Origin: a virus
IMG/VR virus record: IMGVR_UViG_3300008262_000047
Reading direction: 5' to 3' (one strand)
Length of the DNA: 64,000 nucleotides
The position numbers and the translations under genes are program-made. The notes beneath the pieces are model-generated. The model had not been told where the DNA came from. It did not search any database and saw only the letters and a list, made by a program, of their open reading frames with translations. Positions 2,738 through 39,825 of this stretch are shown one piece after another (position 1 is the first letter of the stretch; the number at the start of each line of letters is the position of its first letter).

Positions 2738-3205
2738 CTATTTATCTCTGTTCTGTAAAAGCCCTAAGTCTTTCTCCGTGATGAGCATAAATTCCCATCC
2801 GTATTGAGCAGCAGCTTTACGCGCCGCTTCCCATTTGGCATTGTTCACAGCCCATTGTACAACCTCACTAATAAATCGCTTCGTTTTTTTACTAGGGATT
2901 TGAGGTTCTTGCGTGAATCGAAATGGCTTCACTTCAATCAAATACTTTTTTATAGTACCATTCTTAGTTTTTACTTTGATGAAGAAATCCACAAAATATC
3001 GGTGAATTTTATTGTCTACTGGGCTTAAATATGGGACGACAATTTCTTCTGATCCCCATTCTATTACACCTTCGTTGAAATCACACCATTTCATAAATCG
3101 CACTTCATAACTGCTACGATAAATGATGTTTGTGACATCCCCACGATATTTGCGGGGATTTTTTGGTGTATATTTGCCTTTGTATGTATCTTTAGTATAA
3201 GCCAT
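2738..3205 (-). CDS. gp4: Head completion nuclease (TnsA-like PD-(D/E)xK)
   Basis: YKGKYTPKNPRKYRGD, YRSSYE, WGSEE, HRYFVDF, IEVKP, NNAKWEAA. Confidence 0.93.
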   Translation of the reverse strand: MAYTKDTYKGKYTPKNPRKYRGDVTNIIYRSSYEVRFMKWCDFNEGVIEWGSEEIVVPYLSPVDNKIHRYFVDFFIKVKTKNGTIKKYLIEVKPFRFTQEPQIPSKKTKRFISEVVQWAVNNAKWEAARKAAAQYGWEFMLITEKDLGLLQNRDK

Positions 3206-5116: not shown

Positions 5117-6529
5117 ATGGCAAATCCTATAGATGCCCCAGCGTTAAATCCTGGGTCTGTTAACATTAAAGAGGTCACATTGTTCAAGGCGGGACAGGAA
5201 TATCCATTAAAGGATTTCATTGTTGAACTATCTGTGTTTGAAGATATGTTTTCCAATACCATGTCAGCTACAATGATTTTATCTGACGGATTAAATTTGG
5301 TGGGATCACTTCCTATTACAGGCGGTGAGATTATTAATATTTCATATACTGTACCAGGATTTGAAGATTCACAAATTTTTGGTCGTGCCTTTTATGTGTT
5401 TGCTGTTCGTGATAGATTTCCCTCAAGCACAGACCGTCAACAAATGTACATGTTATCTCTCATGTCATTGGAAGCAGCTGTAGATTCTGTTACTGTTGTT
5501 TCAAAAAAATATACAGGTAAACCTAGTGAAATTGCAAAACAGATATTTGATGAATATCTTTCAATGCCTCGTTTTTGGAGCAAAGAGTACGATATGCCTG
5601 CTGGATTAAGTGACGAAGAAACATTGACACGTCCTGCATGGAAAAAATCAGTACCGCAGCAAAATAGAACATCATTACAATTGATGCCAAACTCAGAGTC
5701 TAAAAATAAAGTTACCTGGGTTGTACCCATGTGGAGTCCAATGAAGTGTATCAATTGGTTGGCAAATCGTCATCTCGATGAAGGTAGTAAAGCAGCCAAC
5801 ACCTTGGCATGGGAATCATCACAACAATTTTATTTTGCGACTGTTGATAGCATATTCAAAGCTCAAGAAAATGTGAATGAGCGCAAGGTGTATTATTACG
5901 GATTTGATGATGCCATGATTGAACGTATTACAAAAAATAATTCTACAAAAAATACGTTGATAGAAGGATACAAGAAGGTGGAAAATGTTGCCATACCCAC
6001 AAACTATGACATTCTTCGTAGTCAAGAAATGGGACATTATTCATCAACAATGCACGTGTTCGATGTGGTCACTAAAAAGTATGATGAATATGTGTTTGAT
6101 TACATCAACAACTATTCACAGTTTGAACACTTACATGGCAAAACAAATCCCACGTTTCCGTCACAACAACTACGAAATGTTCATTCATATGTAACATTCC
6201 GTCCTAAGCATAAGAAAATTTTCAATGATTTTGAAGACCCAAAATTTGAAGATTGGGTTCTACAGAGAACAAGTTTACTATACGATATTAGTAATTTGAA
6301 AATTGAAATCACAGTTCCTGGTTTGGCAGGAACACAGGCAGGTGAAGTTGTACAATTCTATTATCCAAAAATGGCAGCAAAGGGTAGTGATGAAAATGTT
6401 GAGAATTTGATTGATAGATATCTATCAGGAAGTTATCTGGTGACTGCTGTACGTCATATTATTGCGCGAGATAAGTATACAATGAAATTGGAAATGGTAA
6501 AAGAATCACTTGCTTCAGGATTAGGATAA
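5117..6529 (+). CDS. Baseplate hub protein (gp27/phage late control D-like)
   Basis: Lies between gp53 and gp5; FEDMFSNTMS, LPITGGE and YLSGSYLVTAVRHII motifs. Confidence 0.7.
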   Translation: MANPIDAPALNPGSVNIKEVTLFKAGQEYPLKDFIVELSVFEDMFSNTMSATMILSDGLNLVGSLPITGGEIINISYTVPGFEDSQIFGRAFYVFAVRDRFPSSTDRQQMYMLSLMSLEAAVDSVTVVSKKYTGKPSEIAKQIFDEYLSMPRFWSKEYDMPAGLSDEETLTRPAWKKSVPQQNRTSLQLMPNSESKNKVTWVVPMWSPMKCINWLANRHLDEGSKAANTLAWESSQQFYFATVDSIFKAQENVNERKVYYYGFDDAMIERITKNNSTKNTLIEGYKKVENVAIPTNYDILRSQEMGHYSSTMHVFDVVTKKYDEYVFDYINNYSQFEHLHGKTNPTFPSQQLRNVHSYVTFRPKHKKIFNDFEDPKFEDWVLQRTSLLYDISNLKIEITVPGLAGTQAGEVVQFYYPKMAAKGSDENVENLIDRYLSGSYLVTAVRHIIARDKYTMKLEMVKESLASGLG

Positions 6530-7014
6530 TGCATACAAATGTATATAATAATGGGGGCTTCTATTGGTTCATGGGTGTTGTGGAAGATAGACAAGACCCT
6601 GAGGCACTAGGAAGATGTCGTGTTCGTATTGTGGGATATCATAATCCCGACAAAACTATTTTGCCTACTGAAGATTTACCGTGGGCAATACCTCTTATGC
6701 CCATGACATCAGCTTCTATTTCAGGAACAGGACATGCACCTGTGGGTCCTGTAGAAGGAACATGGGTAATGGGATTTTTCCTTGACGGTGATGAATGTCA
6801 GTTGCCTGTCATGTTAGGCACATTCCCGGGACGTGCTGAGCCGGTCAACTTGGTAACATTACTACAAAAACTTGCCGAAGCATTATCAAAAACTCTTACA
6901 TTACCTACAACTGGGTTGTCCAGTTTGGCAATTCCTACTGTGAATGTATTGGCCACCAATGAGACTCAACGAAATGATGCCTTAAATAACAGCGTTACGG
7001 TACAAGAATCATGA
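6529..7014 (+). CDS. gp5: gp5 N-terminal OB-fold domain, encoded separately
   Basis: WFMGVVEDRQDPEALGRCRVRIVGYH...LPTEDLPWA...GTWVMGFFLDG...PVMLG. Confidence 0.88.
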   Translation: MHTNVYNNGGFYWFMGVVEDRQDPEALGRCRVRIVGYHNPDKTILPTEDLPWAIPLMPMTSASISGTGHAPVGPVEGTWVMGFFLDGDECQLPVMLGTFPGRAEPVNLVTLLQKLAEALSKTLTLPTTGLSSLAIPTVNVLATNETQRNDALNNSVTVQES

Positions 7015-9971
7015 TAGATAGACGTTTAATTATCAATGAAATACAACGACAGTTTCCGAAAGATAATGATAATAGTATTGAATCATTATTGCGTATTTCA
7101 CCCACCTTACGTGGATTAATTGAATCAGAAGAAGGCGCCGAAACTTTCACAACAACATTTGGGACATTTTCTCTCCCCCAATTTCTAACTCCTTCCATTA
7201 TTAATCAGATTGTTCGTGAAATTGCGGAAGCACGAAATGTTGATGGCACCTCAATTAACAGTGTTAATGCATTGTCAGCGTTAACTGAAGTTTTGCAGAT
7301 TGCTCAATCTCAAAATCCATTCACAGTAACACCTGATGACATTTACGCTGCGTCACAATATGAAAATTATGAAGATATCCCATTACAAGAAAATACATTA
7401 TTAACGACATTTGATGGTGATGTATTCATTGACCCAACAACAGGAGCATTGGCATTAGCACCCACTCCTAATTCTCGTATTCTTGCACCAGAAAAAAGTC
7501 CCGAAGGACACATTGGACCATTAACTCCTGAAGATGTTGAAATTTTTGCTTTGTTGCTCGAAGATGAAATTCGTCAAGAACGTGTGGCACAAGGATCACC
7601 TCATGGGTTAGATGTCATTGATGAAAATGAAAAAATGGGTTTATATGGATTGACGGTTCCTGATTTAGTCTCAATTGGTGTCGTAAGTCAAGGAGCCATT
7701 GATGATTGGAACTCCATCCCTGAAAATGCACGTGAAGATTATGCCAAACAAGCTGTATTGGCAGGCGTCATCTCATTGGCATTTTACAATAACATCCCAT
7801 ATATTCTACGAACATCATTAAGTTGGTATGTCATGGCGAATGCTCGCTTTTGGCTTGAAAGACTTATTGGTCCTAAAAACTTCATGACGTTACAAAGAAT
7901 ACAGCGTTTGTTAATGTATCGTCATGTATTGCGTCAGTGGAAAACAACGTTTGCATATTTTGTTAAAAATCTCATCACACGCAAATCACAGATATTAGGA
8001 CATTTATTGGCGGCACGATTAGTGGGTGAACGTGCTGCACGTGCATTTGGATTAGGTGGGCAATTCGCCTCGGTGATTGGAAGAACAGCGGAAGAAATTT
8101 ATAATCGAGGTGTGAAGGCAGTAGAAAGTGGTATACGAAATCCTACGTCAGCAGCTCAAATTGACCAAGCGGCTCGTACAGTACCAACACCACCCACACC
8201 TCGTCCAACAACATCTCGCAAATATAGATTCTTCCCTAACATCCTGCAGCAAAACACGAATGAACCTTTACGCCGAGTCCCAGATAATCAAGGATTCTAT
8301 GACCCCAATCGTGTATATCCGCGTGTCACACATATAGGTGAACCTGATACAAATCGGTTGGCACGTAATCATAAAATTAAGGACACGATTGTACAAACAA
8401 AGGATGAAGAACGCATACTTGATGTTCCTGTTGCACGAAAATCATCTCCCACCAAATGGAGTCAACCCAAGTCCCCATATAACACAAAATATCCTTACAA
8501 CCATGTGTATGAGTCTGAATCTGGACACGTAATTGAATATGATGACACACCAAACAATGAACGTATGCATTGGTATCACCGTGAAGGCACCTTCATGGAA
8601 ATTGATAGAAATGGTACTATGGTGCGTAAAATTGTGGGTGATGGTTATGAAATATGGGAACGAGATGGGTATGTATACATTGGGGGCAAGTGCAATGTAA
8701 CCGTAGAAGGTAATTGTAATCTGTATGTGAAGAACAATGTGAATCTTCAAGTTGACGGAAATCTTACTGCCGATGTTCACAAGACAGTGACTTTCAATGT
8801 TGCCAAAGATTTCAATGTTACAGCAGGCGGCACAATTAATTTGAAGGCCAAGAAAAATGTCAACGTGGAGTCAGGTGCCACTATTAATGCCAAGGCGAAA
8901 AACAACTTTAATGCGTCAGGCAAAAATGTCAACATCCAAGCTCAGGCAGTAATGAAACTGTCAGGTAAGTTGAAGGCTTCATTGGCAGCACCACAGGGAC
9001 AAGCATTATTACTATCAGGTGCGGGTACGGTTGTTGTGAACGGTACAGGATTGGCATTGCTACCATTGCCAGGTGCCGCTGCGGCAACTTTGGCTAAATC
9101 GAATGAAGCATCTACCGCAGGATCTGCTGATATTGGTGATCCTCCAGGTGAACGTAATCCCCGCGAGCCTCAACTTGTACCTTTGACATTGGAAGATAGA
9201 GTTGATGAGTGGGCGTCATCATTGTCTACATTGGCGGAAAATCCTGAAGATAATCGGGACGCCATTAATGCCTTGAAGAAGAAAGGCGTTGATGAAGGAT
9301 TAGTCACAAATGAAGATTTGAATCGCCCATTGGCAGAAGGAACAAGAGATGAAACACCACCTCCGGCAGCGAGACCGGCGGCAGTTGCCTCATGTCAGCT
9401 CATCTATTCACAATCTTCATTCCCAAGTTCATATAGTTTAACTCCGAATGTTACATTAGGATCCCTGCCCGGATATAATGTACTTCGCGGACAATATGGA
9501 TTAACTGTACAGGACATGGTGTGTAATTTACGTCAATTGGCAGTAAATGTCATAGAACCCATGTTTGAATTAGTTGGGAAGGGTAACATCATCATCACCT
9601 CGGTGTTTAGAACTCCTGAATCTGTAACTGGATCCTTGAATCCACCCCGAGGCGTATCATTCCATCAACAAGGTCTGGGTATTGATGTATGCTTCCATAG
9701 AAAAAACTTCTCAGAATACTATAACATTGCTGTCCAATTGAAAAACTCCATTCAGTACGATAAACTACTTCTTGAATATCGTTTAGGAAATGTTCGTGGG
9801 GTGTCATCATATAAACCTTGGATTCACATACAATGGCAACAACAGGGTATTAATTTAGCGAATGGGAACAAGGGAGGACAGGCTAGATTACAAGCATTTA
9901 CTCTCAAAAATGATAGAACATATTCTCAGACACTTGTTAACCTATTACCAGACTCCACATTAAGATATTAA
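7011..9971 (+). CDS. gp5: gp5 C-terminal part: beta-helix spike with a C-terminal peptidase M15-like domain
   Basis: YPYNHVYESESGHVIEYDDTP...YHREGTFMEI and VxGN beta-helix repeats; C-terminal ITSVFR...SFHQQGLGID...WIH. Confidence 0.82.
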   Translation: MIDRRLIINEIQRQFPKDNDNSIESLLRISPTLRGLIESEEGAETFTTTFGTFSLPQFLTPSIINQIVREIAEARNVDGTSINSVNALSALTEVLQIAQSQNPFTVTPDDIYAASQYENYEDIPLQENTLLTTFDGDVFIDPTTGALALAPTPNSRILAPEKSPEGHIGPLTPEDVEIFALLLEDEIRQERVAQGSPHGLDVIDENEKMGLYGLTVPDLVSIGVVSQGAIDDWNSIPENAREDYAKQAVLAGVISLAFYNNIPYILRTSLSWYVMANARFWLERLIGPKNFMTLQRIQRLLMYRHVLRQWKTTFAYFVKNLITRKSQILGHLLAARLVGERAARAFGLGGQFASVIGRTAEEIYNRGVKAVESGIRNPTSAAQIDQAARTVPTPPTPRPTTSRKYRFFPNILQQNTNEPLRRVPDNQGFYDPNRVYPRVTHIGEPDTNRLARNHKIKDTIVQTKDEERILDVPVARKSSPTKWSQPKSPYNTKYPYNHVYESESGHVIEYDDTPNNERMHWYHREGTFMEIDRNGTMVRKIVGDGYEIWERDGYVYIGGKCNVTVEGNCNLYVKNNVNLQVDGNLTADVHKTVTFNVAKDFNVTAGGTINLKAKKNVNVESGATINAKAKNNFNASGKNVNIQAQAVMKLSGKLKASLAAPQGQALLLSGAGTVVVNGTGLALLPLPGAAAATLAKSNEASTAGSADIGDPPGERNPREPQLVPLTLEDRVDEWASSLSTLAENPEDNRDAINALKKKGVDEGLVTNEDLNRPLAEGTRDETPPPAARPAAVASCQLIYSQSSFPSSYSLTPNVTLGSLPGYNVLRGQYGLTVQDMVCNLRQLAVNVIEPMFELVGKGNIIITSVFRTPESVTGSLNPPRGVSFHQQGLGIDVCFHRKNFSEYYNIAVQLKNSIQYDKLLLEYRLGNVRGVSSYKPWIHIQWQQQGINLANGNKGGQARLQAFTLKNDRTYSQTLVNLLPDSTLRY

Positions 9972-23218: not shown

Positions 23219-23409
23219 TGGAAACGCCATTTGTACGTGATAAGCATTCCAAGGCACTTATAAATACTGACACAACAGTTATTTTTGCTCGGCGTCAAGA
23301 AAAGCGTCAAGTGCAGAAGATATCCGAGCTTCAAGAAGAAATTACTGAAGTCAAAAACGACTTATTAGAAATAAAACAATTATTACAATCAATAATCAAC
23401 AGAGGATAA
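23218..23409 (+). CDS. Small coiled-coil hypothetical protein
   Basis: Coupled to the upstream stop (TAATG); RDKHSKALINTD plus C-terminal heptads. Confidence 0.7.
   Translation: METPFVRDKHSKALINTDTTVIFARRQEKRQVQKISELQEEITEVKNDLLEIKQLLQSIINRG
23259..23266 (+). promoter_or_regulatory. Late promoter TATAAATA (internal, upstream of fibre gene 23413)
   Basis: Exact motif. Confidence 0.55.
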
Positions 23410-23412
23410 CTT

Positions 23413-24363
23413 ATGGCTACTTTAACGCTTCGCCAAACAGCCCCAGCAGCAGGAACAAACAAAGGTGCCCCACTTACTAATGCAGAAGTTGACGCCAACT
23501 TCAACAGTTTAGATGTTGCCAAATTGGAAAAATCAGGCGGCACAATGACGGGAACTTTAGTTCTTGTAACAGGAACAACAACCATTGCTCCTGTAAAACT
23601 TGTGTCTGGCACAAACTTAACAACTCCACAAGCAGGTGCCGTCGAATTTAACGGCACGAACTTGTTTTTCACCCCAAGTTCAACACGCAAAACTGTCGCC
23701 TTCACTGATAGTAACATCACAGGCACATCGGCAGGTTGGACAACTGGTCGCACCGTGACATTCGCCACAGGCGATGTAACAGGTAACTTCACCATTGATG
23801 GTTCTGCAAACGTATCAAACGTAGCGTTAACAATTGCCGCCAACTCAGTTGCTTTAGGCACCGATACTACAGGTGATTATGTCGCATCATTAGTGGCAGG
23901 CACAGGTGTTACATTAACAAATAATAGTGGTGAGAGTGCCACACCCACTGTTGCCATTGGTCAAGCCGTAGGAACAGCAAGTAACGTGACATTTGGAAGT
24001 ATCAATGTGGGCTCAGCAACAGGTGCTGCCACAGGACAAATCAAGGCATCAGGTGACATCATTGCCTTCTCATCCTCAGATGCAGGATTAAAGACAGATG
24101 TTGCAGTTATTTCTGATGCTCTCACAAAGGTGAAGGCACTTCGCGGTGTCACATATACTTGGAATGAAGAAGCTAATGCATTAGGATTACATGGGGCAGA
24201 TACAGGTGTTATTGCACAAGACGTTGCCGGTGTACTACCTGAAGTTGTAACAACCCGTGAAAGTGGTCACATGGCTGTGAAGTATGAAAAGATGATTGGG
24301 TTGTTGATTGAAGCCATTAAGGAATTGGATGATAAGTTAAGTAAGTGCAACTGCACTAAGTAA
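23413..24363 (+). CDS. Tail fibre with C-terminal intramolecular chaperone (peptidase S74-like)
   Basis: SSDAGLK...LRGVTYTW...GVIAQDV...LPEVV...VKYEKMIGLLIEAIKEL. Confidence 0.85.
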   Translation: MATLTLRQTAPAAGTNKGAPLTNAEVDANFNSLDVAKLEKSGGTMTGTLVLVTGTTTIAPVKLVSGTNLTTPQAGAVEFNGTNLFFTPSSTRKTVAFTDSNITGTSAGWTTGRTVTFATGDVTGNFTIDGSANVSNVALTIAANSVALGTDTTGDYVASLVAGTGVTLTNNSGESATPTVAIGQAVGTASNVTFGSINVGSATGAATGQIKASGDIIAFSSSDAGLKTDVAVISDALTKVKALRGVTYTWNEEANALGLHGADTGVIAQDVAGVLPEVVTTRESGHMAVKYEKMIGLLIEAIKELDDKLSKCNCTK

Positions 24364-24384
24364 TAACACAGGAGAACATAGACA

Positions 24385-25713
24385 ATGGCCATCGTATCCA
24401 GCGGGCAAATTTCAATTAAAGATGTAGGCGACGAAAAGGGATTGCCGTCAAGTGAACTATCCCTTCAGTCATTGTCTACAAACAATGTTAACACATTGGA
24501 TCCTTCTCCTAAGGTGCCTGCTAACACTTCGGGTGCGGTAGGTAATTATCCTGACGGTTCAACACCTCATGCTATCAGTGAGTTTTTTGCCTATAATCAT
24601 AATTTTACTACTACAACTACCGCGGCACCAACAACTACAACATCCACATCAACAACAACGACGACATCAACAACAGAACCACCAACAACGACGACATCAA
24701 CAACATCTACAACATCTACAACATCTACAACAGAACCACCAACAACGACGACATCAACAACATCTACAACATCTACAACAGAACCACCAACAACGACGAC
24801 ATCAACAACAGAACCACCAACAACGACGACATCTACATCTACAACATCTACAACATCTACAACATCTACAACATCTACATCAACAACATCAACTACATCA
24901 ACAACCACAGCGGCGCTCGGTGATTGTTGGACCGTATACAACACTTCACCATTCAACAATCAACAAACCTATGTGTTCGACTATATACCCTATGGTAGTG
25001 CTGGATATATACAAGGATCATTGGATTTCGGCCAATTTGTTAATTTATGTGTAGCACCAGGTACGTTGATTGTAGATGTAAGCGGACAAGGTGGATCTAC
25101 ATCAGGTGGATTTGGAGTATGTACCAACGACTCTCAATGTTCAGGCTCACCCCCAGCAACAACTACTACAACTACAACAGCAGCCACAACTACTACAACA
25201 GCAGCCACAACTACTACAACAGCAGTCTGTTATAGTTCAACATTGGGACTTTCAGGTGTTCAAGGAAGTATATCTGGAGCCTGTTCAGCCGCAGCACAAT
25301 TCACATATTATGTGGGTGGAACCAAGTTGTATACTGACTCGGGATGTGGCACGTTTGCAGACGCCGGTTATTATGGCGATGGAGGTGGGGTATACTATCA
25401 AGTAACAGGCGCAGGTAACTTGACAGGCCCAACATCGTGCCCAGGCGGAACAACGACAACAACTGCAGCTCCCACAACAACTACAACAGCAGCTCCCACA
25501 ACAACTACAACAGCAGCAGCAACAACAACTACAACAGCAGCAGCAACAACAACAACGACAACATGTGTCGTGGGTTGTTTACCTGGCACATCAACATGTA
25601 TAGGTGACGCTGCTGTATGTGACCTTCAAAATGACGATTGCACAATCACATATGGATATTTGGTACAAAACTGTGATCCTGGCTGTTGTTCAGGTGGTGC
25701 ATGTATCTGCTAA
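24385..25713 (+). CDS. Mucin-like Thr-rich, Cys-rich protein; candidate fibre-tip adhesin
   Basis: AGGAG RBS; N-terminal SSGQISIKDV...PHAISEFFAYNH module; three Thr tracts separating Cys-rich domains (18 Cys). Confidence 0.75.
   Translation: MAIVSSGQISIKDVGDEKGLPSSELSLQSLSTNNVNTLDPSPKVPANTSGAVGNYPDGSTPHAISEFFAYNHNFTTTTTAAPTTTTSTSTTTTTSTTEPPTTTTSTTSTTSTTSTTEPPTTTTSTTSTTSTTEPPTTTTSTTEPPTTTTSTSTTSTTSTTSTTSTSTTSTTSTTTAALGDCWTVYNTSPFNNQQTYVFDYIPYGSAGYIQGSLDFGQFVNLCVAPGTLIVDVSGQGGSTSGGFGVCTNDSQCSGSPPATTTTTTTAATTTTTAATTTTTAVCYSSTLGLSGVQGSISGACSAAAQFTYYVGGTKLYTDSGCGTFADAGYYGDGGGVYYQVTGAGNLTGPTSCPGGTTTTTAAPTTTTTAAPTTTTTAAATTTTTAAATTTTTTCVVGCLPGTSTCIGDAAVCDLQNDDCTITYGYLVQNCDPGCCSGGACIC
24607..24909 (+). 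repeat. Coding tandem repeats (ACATCTACA / ACAGAACCACCAACAACGACG) encoding the TTSTTEPP tract
   Basis: Directly visible; shorter Thr/Ala tracts at ~25159-25220 and ~25450-25563. Confidence 0.9.
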
Positions 25714-25742
25714 ATCATTAACAACAAGGTGATATTTACTTT

Positions 25743-26693
25743 ATGAAAAACTTACGTTATATATCAGCCCAACCTGCCATTGATTATTACACATGGCAGG
25801 TTGAGGTTATGATACACAATTTTTTAAAAAATGGTTTAAATCCAAACAATATAGATATTGTATGTTCCATTAAAAACAATCATATCCCTGATGCTTGGAT
25901 TAAATTAGCTAATCACTATAACACGGTTCGATTCTTTTTTTATAATGATGACAGAGAAAATTCGGTATATATTTCTTCAATTCGTCCACACATTCTACAA
26001 AAACATTTTGAGAAGCATCCTTATTTAAAAGATGAAGCCATTATGTATCATGATTGCGATATCATTCTCACGAAGCCCCCACAATGGGACCATTTAGTGC
26101 ATGACGATGTTTGGTATTTAAGTGACACGCGCTATTACATTGGAGCAGAATATATTAAAAGCAAAAAATGTGGTGTGTACGAACGCATGTGTGAAATTGT
26201 AGGTATAAGTGAAGATGTTCCGGTACAATATGAGATGCACAGTGGAGGTGCTCAATATCTCATGAAAAACATTGATGCTGCTTTTTGGAAAAAGGTGTAT
26301 GAGGATTCTGAAAAATTGTATCAATTTTTTCTTGACCATCTGAAAGCATTTCCTCAAACCGATAAATATCACCCCATACAAAAATGGACTGCTGATATGT
26401 GGGCAGTTTTATGGAATGGTTGGTATTTTGGACATGATACCAAAGTGGTGGACGAATTAGAGTTCACATGGCCTATGCACGGTCTTGACTTTTGGGAGAA
26501 ATGTACTATCATGCATAATGCGGGAGTTACAGGAGAAACAGCAGATAAGGACAGAACTTTTTTTAAGGGTAAGTATGTTGACGGAAAATTACCGTATAAT
26601 AATATTACTCTTGAAAATTATAACGAAAAGATGTGTACATATAAGTATGTACAAGAAATTCTTGAAACCGCTAAAACGAGTTGTTTACTATGA
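25743..26693 (+). CDS. GT-A glycosyltransferase; resembles peptide O-glycosyltransferases (HPAT/SGT1-like)
   Basis: YYTWQ, YISSIRP, YHDCD (DxD), GGAQYL, WTADMWAVLW, HNAG; family match is by recalled motif pattern. Confidence 0.6.
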   Translation: MKNLRYISAQPAIDYYTWQVEVMIHNFLKNGLNPNNIDIVCSIKNNHIPDAWIKLANHYNTVRFFFYNDDRENSVYISSIRPHILQKHFEKHPYLKDEAIMYHDCDIILTKPPQWDHLVHDDVWYLSDTRYYIGAEYIKSKKCGVYERMCEIVGISEDVPVQYEMHSGGAQYLMKNIDAAFWKKVYEDSEKLYQFFLDHLKAFPQTDKYHPIQKWTADMWAVLWNGWYFGHDTKVVDELEFTWPMHGLDFWEKCTIMHNAGVTGETADKDRTFFKGKYVDGKLPYNNITLENYNEKMCTYKYVQEILETAKTSCLL

Positions 26694-27259
26694 GATATGA
26701 TTTTGTTGAAATAGGCACATGCGACTACCACACGTTATTAGAAGGGTGTACACCTGAACAAATAGGTTTGTCAGTCGAACCTGTAAAAACATATCTAGAC
26801 CGATTACCCGATAAACCTAATGTAACTAAGATAAACGTTGCTATATCAGCAGAAAACAACATAGTAGATTTATTTTGGGTTGAACCCGAAAATCAAGAAA
26901 AGTATAATTTAGGTTTCACAAAAGGTTGGGCCACTATAATTAAACCCCACCGAGGTCATTCTGAAGCAAAAAAGATGTTAGAGACAGGAATGTTAACTAA
27001 CCATAAAATAGAAGCCATCACATGGTCTACCCTTGTGGAACGTTATCAAATCGAATCTGTGGATTTAGTTAAGATAGACACAGAGGGTCATGATTGTGTA
27101 GTTGTTAACAGTATACTTGATTCTTCTGTTCATCCAATACAAATAGAGTTTGAAATAACACATTGCTTAAAAGAAGAATTGGCTCAGACATATTCACGCC
27201 TTCAAAAAAATAGATATACATTAATTATAGAAGGTGAAGATGCCGTATGGAGAAGATGA
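26690..27259 (+). CDS. FkbM-family methyltransferase
   Basis: FVEIG, SVEP, INVAIS, VDLVKIDTEGHD, IEFE; ATGA overlap with the upstream gene. Confidence 0.85.
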   Translation: MRYDFVEIGTCDYHTLLEGCTPEQIGLSVEPVKTYLDRLPDKPNVTKINVAISAENNIVDLFWVEPENQEKYNLGFTKGWATIIKPHRGHSEAKKMLETGMLTNHKIEAITWSTLVERYQIESVDLVKIDTEGHDCVVVNSILDSSVHPIQIEFEITHCLKEELAQTYSRLQKNRYTLIIEGEDAVWRR

Positions 27260-27886
27260 ATGATACCAAAAATAATTCATCAAATATGGGTAGGGGATTT
27301 TAAATTACCCAAGCGAGAACAGAAACTAGCAAATGAAATAAAAGAGATGCACTCGGATTACGAATATATTTTCTGGTCTTCGCCCCCACCATTATCTAAA
27401 AATATTCAAAATTGGTATGACAAATTCTACTCAATAAAAAACTATGCTTTTTGTGCAGACTTGTTACGTATTTGGGCTGTTAAAGAATTTGGAGGATTCT
27501 ACTTGGATATTGATTTTAAACCGGTGAATTCATTGGACGATTTTTTAAATTATGATGGGGTATTTTTATACCACAACGAAGGCGACTTAACTATTCCAAA
27601 TAATGTATTTGGTGCAAAAAAAGATTTAGATGTTCTAGAATACTGTACACAACAAATAAATGATAGCAATAATTGGTATGGGCCTAGTTGGTTTGGTAGT
27701 GTTGTTAAATCTTCTTTAGGGTATAGTTATGAAACCACACACGAAGTTATTAAAAACAAGATGAGGGAAAAGAATATAGAATATTTTGTGTACGGAGAAT
27801 TTGAAAATAAATATGCAAAACATTTATCATTGTACAGTTGGTCGCCTGAAATTTGGAATAGATTAAATAACCAGGAACAGTTATGA
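27260..27886 (+). CDS. Glycosyltransferase, GT32/Och1-like (DxD)
   Basis: MIPKIIHQIWVG, ADLLR, GGFYLDID. Confidence 0.9.
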   Translation: MIPKIIHQIWVGDFKLPKREQKLANEIKEMHSDYEYIFWSSPPPLSKNIQNWYDKFYSIKNYAFCADLLRIWAVKEFGGFYLDIDFKPVNSLDDFLNYDGVFLYHNEGDLTIPNNVFGAKKDLDVLEYCTQQINDSNNWYGPSWFGSVVKSSLGYSYETTHEVIKNKMREKNIEYFVYGEFENKYAKHLSLYSWSPEIWNRLNNQEQL

Positions 27887-28668
27887 AAAAAGTTAGTTTT
27901 GTCTGTACATCATTTAGAAGATATACATGTGTCAATAGAATCATTGCGCAGTTTAATGCACAAACATACCCAAACAAAGAACTGATTATCCTAAATACAG
28001 ATATGGAATATCCTATGTCATTGGGATTTTCTGATGACCGTATTGTATTAATAAACAATAACACTGATATGCAAACAGGTCTTCCGTATACTAATCGAGG
28101 ACAAATTTGTCGTGATGCAGTAATCTACGCCACAGGTGATTATTTCATGTTGGCTGATGATGACGACATTTACCTACCTTGGCATATTCAACAAGCTGTA
28201 GATAAAATAGAAGAAGTGGGTACAGATGCATGGAAACCTCAAAAAAGTTTCTTTGCCACTCAACATAAATTAGAACTTACACAAAATACATTGGAAGCAA
28301 GTGTTATTGTGAAAATGCCTCGGATTCGACAAATTGGATTTCGCTCAGACATCACAGGATATGAGGGATTGAGTTGGTATACTAAATTACGCGATGAAAA
28401 ACAATTAGATGAACATTACACACACTACGTTCCCTCATATTGTTTCAATTGGTCAGACCCACATGAAATAGCAGGACATAAACAAAGTGGAAATATTAAT
28501 GACCCCAATAATTTTGAACAACATAAAGCAGCATCACAAGATTATGCAAAAGAACCTTTACGTAATGACATGAACCTCACCGACGTATATGAAAAATATT
28601 ACGTCTTTTTACGAAATAATAGTGAACTATTTCCTAGTGATTTAATCCTTAAATATGTGAAAGAATAA
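27883..28668 (+). CDS. Glycosyltransferase family 2
   Basis: VSFVCTS, QTYPNKELIILN, ATGDYFMLADDDDIYLPWHI. Confidence 0.85.
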   Translation: MKKVSFVCTSFRRYTCVNRIIAQFNAQTYPNKELIILNTDMEYPMSLGFSDDRIVLINNNTDMQTGLPYTNRGQICRDAVIYATGDYFMLADDDDIYLPWHIQQAVDKIEEVGTDAWKPQKSFFATQHKLELTQNTLEASVIVKMPRIRQIGFRSDITGYEGLSWYTKLRDEKQLDEHYTHYVPSYCFNWSDPHEIAGHKQSGNINDPNNFEQHKAASQDYAKEPLRNDMNLTDVYEKYYVFLRNNSELFPSDLILKYVKE

Positions 28669-29336
28669 TGCAACCAAACACATTTCCTGATGTAGCCAAC
28701 ATCATTGATACATCGTCTGTGCCCATTTTAATACTTGTGATATCTGAAGGGTGTGAAAATGGATTAAAACCAGAACAGCAGCAGTTAGAACAAAAGCTAC
28801 AAGAACATCCTACACCTGTGGTATATTACACCATGTGTATCCCAGAACATCTCATGGGATTTCCTCGTGCCCAAACTCCCACATTATACTATTTTCTTCC
28901 GAAAAATCAAACTCCTGTGTTCTGGCGATTTGCCATATTCAATAACACATTGAATGATGATTTAAACATCATCACAAAAATGATGACAGGATTGACATAT
29001 GAACAAGCTCGTTTCACACCTGAAGAACAAGAAACCATTTTAAAGGTTGATTATTTTTTAGAACAGGAGAAGGAAACCCTTCATAAGTTTCCTTCAGTAT
29101 TTCAACAGGCACGGAATCTTGCCAAAGAAATGTGGAAAACAGGAAAAAACGCCGCAAAAGGATTGCCTGTCATTGTTCCTACTGAAGTGGGATTTGAACG
29201 TATGAATATTTGTCAGTCATGTGACAAGTTGGAAAAAGATGCATTTCGCTGTACTGAGTGTGGTTGTTTCATGAAAACCAAGACTCAACTCGCCTCAGCG
29301 TCATGTCCATTAAATAAATGGGCACCGCATGTATAA
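28668..29336 (+). CDS. Hypothetical protein: possible thioredoxin-like N-terminus plus a Cys-rich C-terminal domain
   Basis: C-terminal RMNICQSC...CTECGCFMKTKT...CPLNKW; N-terminal TPTLYYF. Confidence 0.55.
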   Translation: MQPNTFPDVANIIDTSSVPILILVISEGCENGLKPEQQQLEQKLQEHPTPVVYYTMCIPEHLMGFPRAQTPTLYYFLPKNQTPVFWRFAIFNNTLNDDLNIITKMMTGLTYEQARFTPEEQETILKVDYFLEQEKETLHKFPSVFQQARNLAKEMWKTGKNAAKGLPVIVPTEVGFERMNICQSCDKLEKDAFRCTECGCFMKTKTQLASASCPLNKWAPHV

Positions 29337-29339
29337 ATA
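29332..29339 (+). promoter_or_regulatory. Late promoter TATAAATA
   Basis: Exact motif upstream of 29368. Confidence 0.7.
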
Positions 29340-32731: not shown

Positions 32732-33451
32732 ATGCCAACACAGGTGCAGTTTCGTAGAGGAACAACAACACAAAATAATAATTTCACCGGCGCTGCGGGT
32801 GAAATTTCGGTAGACACAACTCTTAAAACTCTACGTGTTCATGATGGCACCACCCAAGGTGGGTTTTCTTTGGCAAAATCTGATTTGTCTAATACAACAG
32901 CCATTACACCTACAAGTGTGTCTACATTAACAAACAAAACTGTTACGTTAGGTAATAACACAATAACAGGGACTATTGCAGAATTTAATACCGCGTTAAC
33001 TGACAGCGATTTTGCCACGTTAGCGGGCACAGAAACATTAACAAACAAGACGCTAACAAGTCCTACGCTAACAAGTCCTACACTGACAACACCTACGTTG
33101 GGTGTGGCATCAGCAACATCGGTTGCATTGGCTAACGGTATTCTTCGTTCAGCTACACTGACAACCTCCGCCACAACAGCAAATCAAGTAGCGGATAGTA
33201 TTGCAATTGCAACGTATAGAAGTGTGAAATATCAAATTTCCATCACATCAGGTTCTGCATATCATATGACTGAAGTAAGTATCATCCACGATGGAACTGA
33301 TGCATACATCACTGAATATGGTACTATTTTGACAGGGGTATCATTGGCGTCATTTGATGCAGATATCTCAGGGGGCAATCTTCGTCTGTTGACAACACCT
33401 GCAAATGCCTCAACGGTGTATAAGATTGTAGCAACAGCAATCAATGTCTAA
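32732..33451 (+). CDS. Fibre protein with an Mtd/hyaluronidase-type N-terminal domain
   Basis: QVQFRRGTT...FTGAAGEISVDT...VHDG; TLTNKTLTSP repeats. Confidence 0.75.
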   Translation: MPTQVQFRRGTTTQNNNFTGAAGEISVDTTLKTLRVHDGTTQGGFSLAKSDLSNTTAITPTSVSTLTNKTVTLGNNTITGTIAEFNTALTDSDFATLAGTETLTNKTLTSPTLTSPTLTTPTLGVASATSVALANGILRSATLTTSATTANQVADSIAIATYRSVKYQISITSGSAYHMTEVSIIHDGTDAYITEYGTILTGVSLASFDADISGGNLRLLTTPANASTVYKIVATAINV

Positions 33452-37566: not shown

Positions 37567-38025
37567 ATGAGTACAATTACATTTGAACAATTATTAGATG
37601 TCATCAACGAAAACCCATCGGAATATGAAGAACGATATGTCCGATGGGTTACCGTTGCCCATGATAAAAAGAAGTTAACTGAACTTCTGTATGAATTGAA
37701 ATATCTAAAGGAAGAAAACAAGTGGCCTGAAAGAATACAACTACTTGAAGAAATTCTTGAAGAAACAGGGCATGAACATTGCTACAATCTTTTGGTGAAT
37801 GAGCCACAAACCGCTCGTTTCGCTTTGATTGAAAAATTTGCTCGTCAAGCCGCCATGGAAGTATTAATTTTTGACCGATATGGTATTGAAACATTAAATA
37901 TCATCACACAACTCCCACTTGCTGATTATCAATTGGTGGTGAAGCGAGTTTATGAAATTGTCACGATGATTCGTGACATCACAACATCCACTACATCATT
38001 GGCACAAGGATTGGCGGGTGTATGA
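37567..38025 (+). CDS. Hypothetical helical protein
   Basis: GGAG RBS; ORF track. Confidence 0.7.
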   Translation: MSTITFEQLLDVINENPSEYEERYVRWVTVAHDKKKLTELLYELKYLKEENKWPERIQLLEEILEETGHEHCYNLLVNEPQTARFALIEKFARQAAMEVLIFDRYGIETLNIITQLPLADYQLVVKRVYEIVTMIRDITTSTTSLAQGLAGV

Positions 38026-38720
38026 AGAAGAACATTTATGGTTTGAGTGCATGGAGATTTCAACCCACGAAATTGGCAATTCTTGTTCCATGTCGAGAAA
38101 ATATGTACAGTTTATTCGCATCATCACTTGTTGAATTAGTGAAAACAACAACGATGGTGGGTATTGATGTGCATGTACTTTATAATCAAAGTACTATTCT
38201 ATTAACCCAACGAGAAAAGTTGGCACAACAAGCACTTGAAATTAACGCTGATTATGCCCTATGGCTAGATTCTGACATGTTATTTCCCAGCAGTGCAGCA
38301 TTACGATTAATGGGACACAATAAGGATGTTGTCTGTTCCAACTACATGAAACGTTCTGTTCCTTTACAGACAGTTGCCTATCCTGAACGAGGTGACTGGG
38401 ACAATTGGTTGCCATTGGAATATGACCAAGAATTACAAGAAGTTGAGGGGGTTGGCATGGGGTGTGTCATGATGAAAACCGAAGTGTTAACAAAAATTCA
38501 ACCTCCCTATTTTGCTTTTGAGTATAAAGATAAAGAATGGCATGGTGAAGATTTCTACTTCCAAAAGAAATTACGCGATGCGGGATATAAGATTTGGGTG
38601 GACATGAATCTCAGCCGCCAAGTACGTCATGTAGGACAATGGGCGTTTGGTCCATCCATTGATGTGAATGACGAAAAGATTGTTAAAAAACATAAAGCTA
38701 AAATGAAGAAGGAGTCATAA
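38022..38720 (+). CDS. GT-A (GT2-like) glycosyltransferase
   Basis: ALWLDSDMLFP, GVGMGCVMMK, GEDFYF, VRHVG. Confidence 0.8.
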   Translation: MKKNIYGLSAWRFQPTKLAILVPCRENMYSLFASSLVELVKTTTMVGIDVHVLYNQSTILLTQREKLAQQALEINADYALWLDSDMLFPSSAALRLMGHNKDVVCSNYMKRSVPLQTVAYPERGDWDNWLPLEYDQELQEVEGVGMGCVMMKTEVLTKIQPPYFAFEYKDKEWHGEDFYFQKKLRDAGYKIWVDMNLSRQVRHVGQWAFGPSIDVNDEKIVKKHKAKMKKES

Positions 38721-38721
38721 T

Positions 38722-39825
38722 ATGTTGAAAGGTGAAAGTTGGTTAGCCCATAGTGATTTGTTCACGAAATATTGGATTGTTGAAACAAAGCCATGGGTTC
38801 GTTCTCTTGGCTGGTTCACTGATTTTGAACAGACAGTCCGAGATTCTAAAGGGTGGGCTCAGGCGGGTGAAAAGGAACTCACCATTTATGAATACATCAA
38901 TGTGTTGGAAGAAAAAGGCTCAGAGAGAAAAATTTATCAGCATGCCAATGGCAAGTGGCAACACATTTCAGCTCCTTTAGTATTCGTTGTTCGAAAAAAT
39001 GATGAACTTGTATTCATTGCAGGTTGGGCAGGAGACCCCAAAACTATCAGAGAATATCAATCTCAAAGTGTGGATCCATGGGACTGGCCGGAAAAGATTA
39101 TTGTTGATGTCAATCCTCTAGCAGCAATTCACACATTGAAATTTAATCGCACAGAAAATTTAGAAACTCCTGTATTTTTTGCCAGTAACGGCGAAACAAA
39201 TGCAGATGAGAATTGGGAACACCTTGTTAAAATGTGTCCGCGAGCTGTCCGTATTGATGGAATTAACGGTCGTAGAAAAATGTTTTTACGCTGTGTGGAT
39301 TTATCAGAAGGGGCATCCCACTTCTTTGTAGTCACAGGAAAAAACAAATTAACTGACAAAACAATTTTTGATTATCCAGTAAAAGATGCACCGCGGGCAC
39401 ATCTCGTATTTAATGCTAAAAATATGAGTAATCGTCTAGAATATGGACACATGGGTGTCGTGGCATATAATACCGATTTGGTTCTTAGCACCCCTGAAAA
39501 CTTTGGTCTGGACTTCACCTCATATAGTCCCATTCATACAGTGCCGCGAACCGTATCAGAAGCCACATTTGCCACTAGTCCATTTGAGGCTTGGCGAACA
39601 GCATTCCGTGAGTGTGTGAAACTCACGTTACGAAATTCAATAAATGACCAACATTGGTTGGCACGTTGGATGGCGTTTGCCGAGGGAGTTCATAGTAATT
39701 GGGTACTTATTGGTGCAAAAGAAGGGCATGAATTTGCTCTACGATATAAAGATTCCCCCGATGAATTACGGAACACTGTTGATTGGAATTGGCTTGATAA
39801 TCACTTCAAAACAACGCACACATAA
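38722..39825 (+). CDS. Glycosyltransferase-like protein (GT-A-like C-terminal half, no obvious DxD)
   Basis: ETNADENW, RIDGING, LEYGHMG, SPFEAWRTAFRECVKL. Confidence 0.55.
   Translation: MLKGESWLAHSDLFTKYWIVETKPWVRSLGWFTDFEQTVRDSKGWAQAGEKELTIYEYINVLEEKGSERKIYQHANGKWQHISAPLVFVVRKNDELVFIAGWAGDPKTIREYQSQSVDPWDWPEKIIVDVNPLAAIHTLKFNRTENLETPVFFASNGETNADENWEHLVKMCPRAVRIDGINGRRKMFLRCVDLSEGASHFFVVTGKNKLTDKTIFDYPVKDAPRAHLVFNAKNMSNRLEYGHMGVVAYNTDLVLSTPENFGLDFTSYSPIHTVPRTVSEATFATSPFEAWRTAFRECVKLTLRNSINDQHWLARWMAFAEGVHSNWVLIGAKEGHEFALRYKDSPDELRNTVDWNWLDNHFKTTHT

Follow-up and report, generated by a model that had tools for sequence, protein, structure and literature searches.

A 64,000-nucleotide stretch of viral DNA (IMG/VR record IMGVR_UViG_3300008262_000047), hereafter called the window, carries at positions 23413-29336 a block of seven genes in which a short tail fibre is followed by a Thr-rich, mucin-like protein of 442 amino acids (aa), four enzymes and a Cys-rich protein. 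We consider it likely that this block is a late unit making the mucin-like protein together with the enzymes that O-glycosylate its Thr linkers. The first enzyme, a candidate initiating glycosyltransferase, is called GT1 here. All seven open reading frames (ORFs) lie on the + strand with the coordinates of an initial annotation, which had described an S74 fibre, the 442-aa protein, four coupled enzyme genes and a Cys-rich protein, each of them borne out here. That annotation had also proposed an O-glycosylation cassette whose first enzyme would resemble plant enzymes of the families GT95 and GT96. Its core, a cassette dedicated to the Thr tracts with GT1 as the initiator, gains strong support from comparative genomics, while the plant resemblance is kept as a lead only. 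The attachment of sugars, the identities of these sugars, the order of the enzymes, the location in the virion and the biological role are all inferred from sequence.

The pairing of GT1 with poly-Thr proteins extends well beyond the window, and the linkage of glycosyltransferase homologues to Thr-rich genes that the initial annotation had anticipated was found. Among 31 GT1 loci from IMG/VR (514 kb), 24 contain a poly-Thr ORF (36 ORFs in all) and three an ORF with TPT-type repeats, the latter scored by a density criterion. In about 19 of the loci, a distance of 17-70 nt separates the end of the poly-Thr ORF from GT1 downstream. Neither type of ORF was seen in control loci around T4-like portal genes (851 kb; 0/80 for each), and control loci with the DUF4815 baseplate/fibre gene and no GT1 gave a poly-Thr ORF in 1/32 and a TPT-type repeat ORF in 0/31, with locus L124 excluded from the latter count. 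For poly-Thr ORFs in GT1 loci against the pooled controls, the nominal Fisher p is 7e-20. The GT1 proteins of these loci are 36% to 71% identical, and their hosts belong to several phyla.

Cultured phages present the same association on named virion proteins. In Enterococcus phage phiFL1A, the major tail (tail-tube) protein ends with the poly-Thr sequence ...NGTTTTTSTTTTTTSSTTTTTTTQASSK and GT1 is the next gene; in siphoviruses of this type, GT1 lies between the tail-tube and tail-chaperone genes. Lactobacillus phage PLE3 carries TTTTTTTSK at the end of both its major capsid and major tail proteins, and a 126-aa protein, half of it poly-Thr, is encoded directly upstream of its GT1. The pattern recurs in Clostridium phage phiCTP1, Enterococcus phage VPE25, Staphylococcus phage RQ1 and Chryseobacterium phage MA9V-3. 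Phage glycosyltransferases are here genetically linked to virion proteins that possess a Ser/Thr-rich acceptor region. Whole-genome profile searches of five cultured Gram-positive GT1 phages returned no Pfam match for GT2, GT4-type, GT8 or GT32 enzymes. Since GT1 is the only recognisable glycosyltransferase of these five phages, it fits the role of an initiating and possibly sole enzyme. As a separate observation, phage RQ1 (L122:19232-19934) has long poly-Thr stretches in ORFs that overlap the tail-tube gene at its 3' end or run straight on from it, and in phage VPE25 (L121:8462-8617) they stand in the same relation to the gene that precedes GT1. Both cases resemble extensions by frameshift or read-through, by which only part of the subunits would be tagged.

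A natural exchange of cassettes among close relatives provides the second line of evidence. The window and the loci L156, L157 and L124 are siblings whose flanking genes are about 70-90% identical and include the DUF4815 protein, a 63-aa ORF, the S74 fibre, p137, p110 and a 593-aa fibre. In the slot under study, the 442-aa protein of the window has ten runs of five or more Thr and no TPTNT, and the next genes encode GT1, an FkbM methyltransferase, a GT32-like enzyme and a GT2 enzyme. The same four enzymes follow P0278 in L156, a protein of 402 aa with 20 such runs and again no TPTNT. In L157, the slot holds P0301 (525 aa), without a single run and with 28 TPTNT, followed by two PF11397 (GT60-type) enzymes, a GT25, a GT11 and a sugar epimerase. 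The protein in L124 (445 aa) likewise has no run and 24 TPTNT, and precedes two PF11397 enzymes (E 7e-73 and 7e-49), two unknowns and a sugar epimerase. These alternative cassettes span L157:1332-8412 and L124:8147-14079, and the epimerase is NAD-dependent. P0301 is built like its counterpart in the window, with an N-terminal module 86% identical and a homologous bead (42%), and its linkers consist of PTPTNT repeats.

Beyond the siblings, TPT-type repeat ORFs occur in 57 of 79 GT60 (PF11397) loci and poly-Thr ORFs in 13 of 79. Loci with poly-Thr only have GT1 alone in 21 cases and GT60 alone in none; conversely, loci with TPT-type repeats only have GT60 alone in 44 cases and GT1 alone in none. 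Linker type and enzyme family change together, as expected of an enzyme and its acceptor, and this pattern is hard to reconcile with the modification of host glycans or DNA. The GT60 enzymes, such as Gnt1 of Dictyostelium and the mucin-initiating enzyme of Trypanosoma cruzi, attach GlcNAc directly onto Thr or hydroxyproline (Hyp) of proteins. Placed in the siblings' same slot after a homologous TPTNT protein, the PF11397 enzymes apparently do the same job with a different enzyme: GT60 and GT1 are unrelated in sequence, PF11397 is absent from the window, and the partner of GT60 is the TPT-type repeat and not poly-Thr.

The presumed acceptor, encoded at 24385-25713, contains 131 Thr (30%), 51 Ser and 18 Cys, and this ORF is the only one in the window to reach at least seven Thr per 10 residues. 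Its layout is that of a PTS domain, with Thr tracts (64-67% Thr) separating Cys-bearing beads and a knob (Table 1), and the DNA beneath the tracts is made of tandem repeats (periods 9/30/48/57 in tract 1). From the gene linkage, the repeats are predicted to be densely O-glycosylated. P0278 and P0301 keep 86-92% identity over the N-terminal 75 aa, despite their differing linkers, and a homologue search with this module gave two matches. The L124 protein carries a related module C-terminally (36% over 47 aa, pairwise E 3e-6), where the window protein has it N-terminally. This terminal module probably serves to dock the glycoprotein on the particle close to the fibres. For bead B, an AF2 model built on an 8-row alignment is all-beta with low confidence (predicted local distance difference test, pLDDT, 59) and too poor for a fold search. 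In a public protein collection, the gene is present as a truncated 245-aa call, P0276. The full 442-aa ORF is nevertheless taken as real, because its N-terminal module is conserved in the siblings and its beads recur in other proteins. In the relative L005, a poly-Thr ORF (6313-7404) is likewise absent from the gene calls, and gene finders appear to miss such low-complexity genes systematically.

The window as a whole corresponds to the structural region of a T4-like myovirus, with genes for a baseplate wedge, the 1902-aa DUF4815 protein, several fibres, the large terminase subunit, sheath, portal, scaffold and major head protein. Among cultured phages, it comes closest to Methylophilales and cyanobacterial T4-like phages (amino-acid identity about 40-47%), and a megablast of block 23413-29336 against 50,697 phage records gave no DNA-level match. 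The genes of the block are tightly packed, with spacings in order of +21, +29, an ATGA overlap, 0, an ATGA overlap and a 1-nt overlap. The T4-type motif TATAAATA, which works as a late promoter in T4-like phages, occurs 12 times in the window against 4.1 expected, a threefold enrichment reached in 0/100 shuffles; 11 of the 12 matches are on the + strand, mostly immediately upstream of structural genes. Since the motif precedes the block at 23259, returns at 29332 and has no match between 23267 and 29331, the fibre, the Thr-rich protein and the enzymes look like one late unit. Scans for sigma-70 promoters and terminators stayed at chance level.

Table 1. Positions of the genes, protein segments and putative promoters in and around block 23413-29336.
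Feature	Position	Strand	Evidence or remarks
T4-type late-promoter motif TATAAATA	23259..23266	+	nearest upstream of the block; putative promoter
Short tail fibre with C-terminal S74 intramolecular chaperone	23413..24363	+	PF13884, tail-fibre PHROGs
75-aa terminal module, candidate docking module	24385..24609	+	conserved in P0278 and P0301
Thr tract 1, residues 76-177	24610..24915	+	64% Thr, 20% Ser, 9% Pro
Bead A, 78-aa domain, 4 Cys	24916..25149	+	42% identity to the equivalent P0301 bead
Thr tract 2, residues 256-281	25150..25227	+	65% Thr
Bead B, 74-aa domain, 4 Cys	25228..25449	+	recurs in other bead-and-linker proteins (alignment)
Thr tract 3, residues 356-394	25450..25566	+	67% Thr
Cys-rich C-terminal knob, 9 Cys in 48 aa, plus stop codon	25567..25713	+	similar terminus in P0277
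GT1, soluble GT-A glycosyltransferase, candidate initiating Thr O-glycosyltransferase	25743..26693	+	phrog_4417, E 9e-69
FkbM methyltransferase	26690..27259 (likely ATG start, ATGA overlap with the GT1 stop; ORF finder: TTG 26681)	+	PF05050
GT32-like DXD glycosyltransferase	27260..27886	+	PF04488, 47.6 bits vs cut-off 23
GT2-family glycosyltransferase	27883..28668	+	PF00535, 28.5 bits vs cut-off 23.3
222-aa protein with C-terminal Cys-rich DUF6171 domain	28668..29336	+	PF19668, 27.7 bits vs cut-off 27; phrog_13558
Next late-promoter motif TATAAATA	29332..29339	+	closes the block

The location of the product allows for more than one interpretation. It is unlikely, in our view, that the Thr tracts are glycosylated in a product other than a fibre tip or structural component, either a soluble mucin-like decoy or adhesin released at lysis or a decoration of the head or neck. 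Such a scenario draws on the facts that nothing places the protein in the virion, that the 442-aa protein matches no structural PHROG or Pfam family and that bead B is without a usable model; the "fibre-tip" placement of the initial annotation is itself suggested by adjacency alone. Yet the gene sits inside the fibre module, directly after the S74 fibre and in one late unit with it, the tags of cultured phages are on capsid and tail-tube proteins, and the terminal module is conserved above its neighbours (86-92% against 78-81%), as a docking interface would be.

The enzymes could also be auxiliary genes that remodel surface glycans of the host (lipopolysaccharide, capsule or S-layer glycan), for instance to block superinfection, with the Thr-rich protein as an unrelated neighbour. 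Glycosyltransferases of marine T4-like phages are normally read as modifiers of the host surface or of DNA (PMC12801897); moreover, GT2 weakly resembles PglI, EpsE and WcaA, and the L156 orthologue of the GT32-like enzyme also matches Caps_synth. This explanation, which we hold to be quite improbable, fails to account for the near-constant adjacency of GT1 and poly-Thr across unrelated phages, the position of GT1 between siphovirus tail-tube and tail-chaperone genes and the joint change of linker and enzyme family among the siblings; in addition, the motifs that bracket the block are late-promoter motifs only.

Finally, unmodified poly-Thr tracts serving as flexible or extended spacers, with GT1 and its partners glycosylating another virion protein or modified DNA bases, make for a very unlikely account: Thr/Pro linkers are able to work unglycosylated, DNA glycosylation is known in T4-like phages and the connection between enzymes and tracts is without direct evidence, but DNA hypermodification is not known from the small siphoviruses in which GT1 adjoins the tail-tube gene, TTTTTTTSK at the extreme C-termini of capsid and tail-tube proteins does not link domains, and the specificity between repeat type and enzyme family is difficult to account for unless the two are enzyme and substrate. 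DNA glycosylation and host-glycan remodelling were thus rejected as main explanations on adjacency, tail-gene context and linker/enzyme co-variation.

Several points weigh against our preferred reading of block 23413-29336 as a unit that makes and O-glycosylates a mucin-like protein. Both glycosylation by the GT1 family and the presence of the 442-aa protein in virions are computational predictions, and the 18 Cys are awkward in a protein made in the cytoplasm. Poly-Thr could be a plain flexible linker, and the short GT2 and GT32-like matches fit enzymes of lipid-linked glycan synthesis equally well. Seven of the 31 GT1 loci are without a poly-Thr ORF within 10 kb (two of them lack any upstream sequence), and none was present within 20 kb in the Herelleviridae phage SAC12B. 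Because the loci are interrelated, the Fisher value given above is not a true probability.

The description of the first enzyme as a GT-A glycosyltransferase with a DxD motif, already given in the initial annotation, agrees with a confident model, with fold matches to glycosyltransferases and with the invariant D104-x-D106. GT1 has no family match in Pfam and belongs to an unnamed family, for which one collection contains 2333 homologues (E<=1e-5) and a second one 847 clusters at 50% identity. An AF2/AlphaFold model based on 51 diverse members (pLDDT 97.4) consists of a single Rossmann-like alpha/beta/alpha GT-A domain. This model retrieved 159 PDB matches at E<=0.001, of which the top ones are all glycosyltransferases (Z up to 14.7). 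The closest solved folds are retaining GT8/GT24 enzymes, namely the Skp1 alpha-galactosyltransferase AgtA (6mw8, Z 14.7), glycogenin (3u2t, 14.6) and LgtC (1g9r, 14.4), and the UGGT catalytic domain matches at a Foldseek E of 2e-6; GT6 enzymes and the chlorovirus A64R domain (2p6w, Z 11.3) rank lower. A sequence search of the PDB with GT1 and its family profile yielded nothing real, its TALE-repeat matches being rejected as an artefact of a 31-residue stretch.

Four residues, D104 and D106 (HDCD), Q171 and H258, are invariant in the 51 sequences, down to 34% identity. Their succession of DxD, mid-domain Gln and C-terminal His is that of the metal-binding and catalytic-region residues of GT8. 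With glycogenin, LgtC, AgtA and UGGT, several of which act on proteins or protein-bound glycans, GT1 shares the GT-A fold with DxD, Gln and His; it differs by an identity of 6-12%, a template modelling (TM) score of 0.4-0.5 and a helical insertion around residues 179-228. The GT8 profile PF01501 matched neither GT1 of the window nor anything in five GT1-bearing phage genomes. From these models, GT1 is probably metal-dependent and retaining and, as it lacks a hydrophobic N-terminus, it should act in the cytoplasm. GT1 and GT60-like genes also occur in the loci L035, L205 and L216, on contigs labelled as giant-virus metagenome-assembled genomes (GVMAG), which may be either genuine giant viruses or phage contigs binned wrongly.

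In plants and algae, the hydroxyproline O-arabinosyltransferases HPAT (GT95) and the serine galactosyltransferases SGT1/SERGT1 (GT96) start glycans by transferring a sugar straight to hydroxyl groups in repetitive, extended polypeptides. A structure search of the ESM Atlas linked GT1, with TM 0.76 over 282 residues, to a chlorophyte cluster whose members are 100% PF23452 HPAT; in two viral neighbour clusters, 10% of the members match this profile. At the sequence level, PF23452 found no match in GT1 of the window at E<=0.1, one of 51 family members at E 0.23 and 0/10 distant homologues, and no GT95 or GT96 structure appears among the solved-structure matches of GT1. The resemblance to GT95 proposed initially therefore keeps one structural lead, while the profile matches are not significant and the nearest solved folds are GT8/GT24; since the HPAT profile match is not significant, we did not file GT1 under GT95. 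The plant HPAT and SGT1 enzymes are Golgi membrane proteins acting on Hyp or Ser, whereas the phage GT1 is soluble and paired with Thr runs.

If this assignment is correct, the mucin-like protein would be made in the cytoplasm late in infection, and GT1 would start the glycans by placing a sugar on Thr hydroxyls within the poly-Thr tracts. Extension would then fall to the GT2 and GT32-like enzymes, the FkbM methyltransferase would O-methylate a sugar, and the DUF6171 protein would act as a dispensable helper. As no sugar-nucleotide gene belongs to the cassette, nucleotide sugars of the host would be used. Finally, the product would be attached to the particle through the conserved terminal module, giving a glycan-coated appendage near the fibres. 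Its role could be shielding, the stiffening of an extended stalk, adhesion or protease resistance.

The remaining genes of the cassette are consistent with such a pathway. FkbM matches PF05050 with 37.1 bits (cut-off 22.7) and TIGR01444 with 31.5 bits, below the cut-off of 37.7, and is 80% identical to its counterpart in L011 and 42% to that in L156. The PF00535 alignment of GT2 is limited to residues 81-116 in the window and covers residues 5-114 in the L010 orthologue; GT2 is 69-81% identical beside GT1 in L005, L010, L011 and L156. The DUF6171 protein adjoins both GT1 and GT60 cassettes and is absent from L156, hence its classification as accessory and not obligatory. A thioredoxin-like identity of its N-terminal part, a weak Atlas lead (0.77), was not used.

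GT1 is also found fused to other domains, namely GT2+GT32, GT6, GT7C, GT25, a methyltransferase, radical SAM/SPASM and DUF6171 (the latter in P0079 and P0091), and these fusions tie the GT2, GT32-like and DUF6171 genes of the window to the same pathway. GT1, GT2 and a methyltransferase are kept in close relatives, with GT32 or GT25 as the extra glycosyltransferase. The methyltransferase belongs to three unrelated families: FkbM in the window, L011 and L156, Methyltransf_24/TylF-like in L010 and Methyltransf_23 in L005. TylF-type enzymes are known to methylate sugars. That unrelated methyltransferases were recruited time and again suggests selection for a methylated sugar.

Other loci carry additional functions beside GT1. 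At L006:7407-11440, and also in L007, GT1 lies between two poly-Thr proteins with Cys-framed runs (CSATTTTTTTTTTTTAGC) and a radical SAM/SPASM enzyme comes next; P0129 is a fusion of GT1 with radical SAM/SPASM. This proximity hints at a second modification, for example a crosslink, on the same substrates. At L008:7456-11184, a 1085-aa poly-Thr protein and an S74 fibre are followed by a GT29 (sialyltransferase-family) enzyme, a GT1-DUF6171 fusion and a 665-aa cytidylyltransferase-like gene, which suggests capping with a sugar of the nonulosonic-acid type activated by cytidine monophosphate.

In the window itself, the S74 fibre matches Peptidase_S74 over the full profile (53.5 bits, cut-off 22) and is 78-81% identical to its counterparts in L124, L156 and L157. 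Further TATAAATA sites, for example at 3205, 9978, 14857, 29792, 34814, 39834, 44460, 50924 and 52258, would map other late transcription units. Another fibre protein (32732-33451, also L156:15584-17209) starts with an Mtd_N domain (PF18454, E 6e-13), the N-terminus of the major tropism determinant, a domain that occurs in proteins targeted by diversity-generating retroelements. A second small gene cluster in the fibre-neck interval (37567-39825) encodes two proteins without family and a 232-aa Anp1-like (mannosyltransferase-type) protein that scores 27.1 bits, below the Pfam cut-off of 28.8; it may be a further glycan-handling unit.

A broader proposal, on which we are evenly divided, is that phages from Firmicutes siphoviruses to aquatic T4-like phages carry swappable "mucin plus glyco-code" cassettes, in which a constant docking module would be combined with a linker and its matched initiator (poly-Thr with GT1, TPTNT with GT60) so that the glycan coat of the particle could be exchanged as a whole, and that GT1 represents a new family of soluble polypeptide Thr O-glycosyltransferases, distant kin of HPAT and SGT1. 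Our literature search found no report on the GT1 enzyme family or on poly-Thr tags in phages. Should GT1 and its partners coat poly-Thr, virion glycosylation would be widespread, given the 847 GT1 clusters and their spread over phages of lactic acid bacteria, enterococci, staphylococci, clostridia and Bacteroidota as well as aquatic T4-like phages. This would bear on phage therapy (antibody escape, pharmacokinetics), on dairy phage biology and on adsorption, particle stability or grazing resistance in water. It would also change the annotation of phage glycosyltransferases, today routinely taken for host-surface or DNA modifiers. For glyco-engineering in bacteria, GT1 and the GT60-like enzymes would be of use as small, soluble O-glycosyltransferases directed by a sequence tag, and the swap between poly-Thr/GT1 and TPTNT/GT60 offers a ready-made comparison of acceptor specificity.

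Virion glycosylation has precedents with which the window can be compared. According to published accounts, mycobacteriophages such as Che8, Corndog and Myrna (Freeman et al. 2023) encode glycosyltransferases that modify their own capsid and tail-tube proteins in the cytoplasm (PMC12363180, PMC12582341), and the virion glycan shields the particle from antibodies (PMC12363180). The likeness lies in phage glycosyltransferases linked to virion proteins. The mycobacteriophage tags are on capsid and tail tube, whereas the window has a dedicated 442-aa mucin-like substrate, a long poly-Thr acceptor and an initiator candidate from the unnamed family phrog_4417. Hosts differ as well, mycobacteria in one case and, for GT1, those of marine and freshwater T4-like, Firmicutes and Bacteroidota phages in the other. 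To our knowledge, glycosylation of phage virion proteins has been shown experimentally in mycobacteriophages only.

Among other viruses, it is also established for chloroviruses and giant viruses (see the reviews PMC5408694 and PMC9614988). Chlorovirus PBCV-1 resembles the proposed system in having a virus-encoded cytoplasmic pathway where a glycan on a virion protein is initiated or extended and a sugar is then methylated. Its protein A064R combines two glycosyltransferase domains with a methyltransferase domain. The PBCV-1 glycans differ in being N-linked to the capsid protein of a eukaryotic virus that has no mucin-like tract. Overall, we rate the principle of virion glycosylation as known, and the enzyme family, the type of acceptor, the dedicated mucin-like substrate and the swappable cassette as new.

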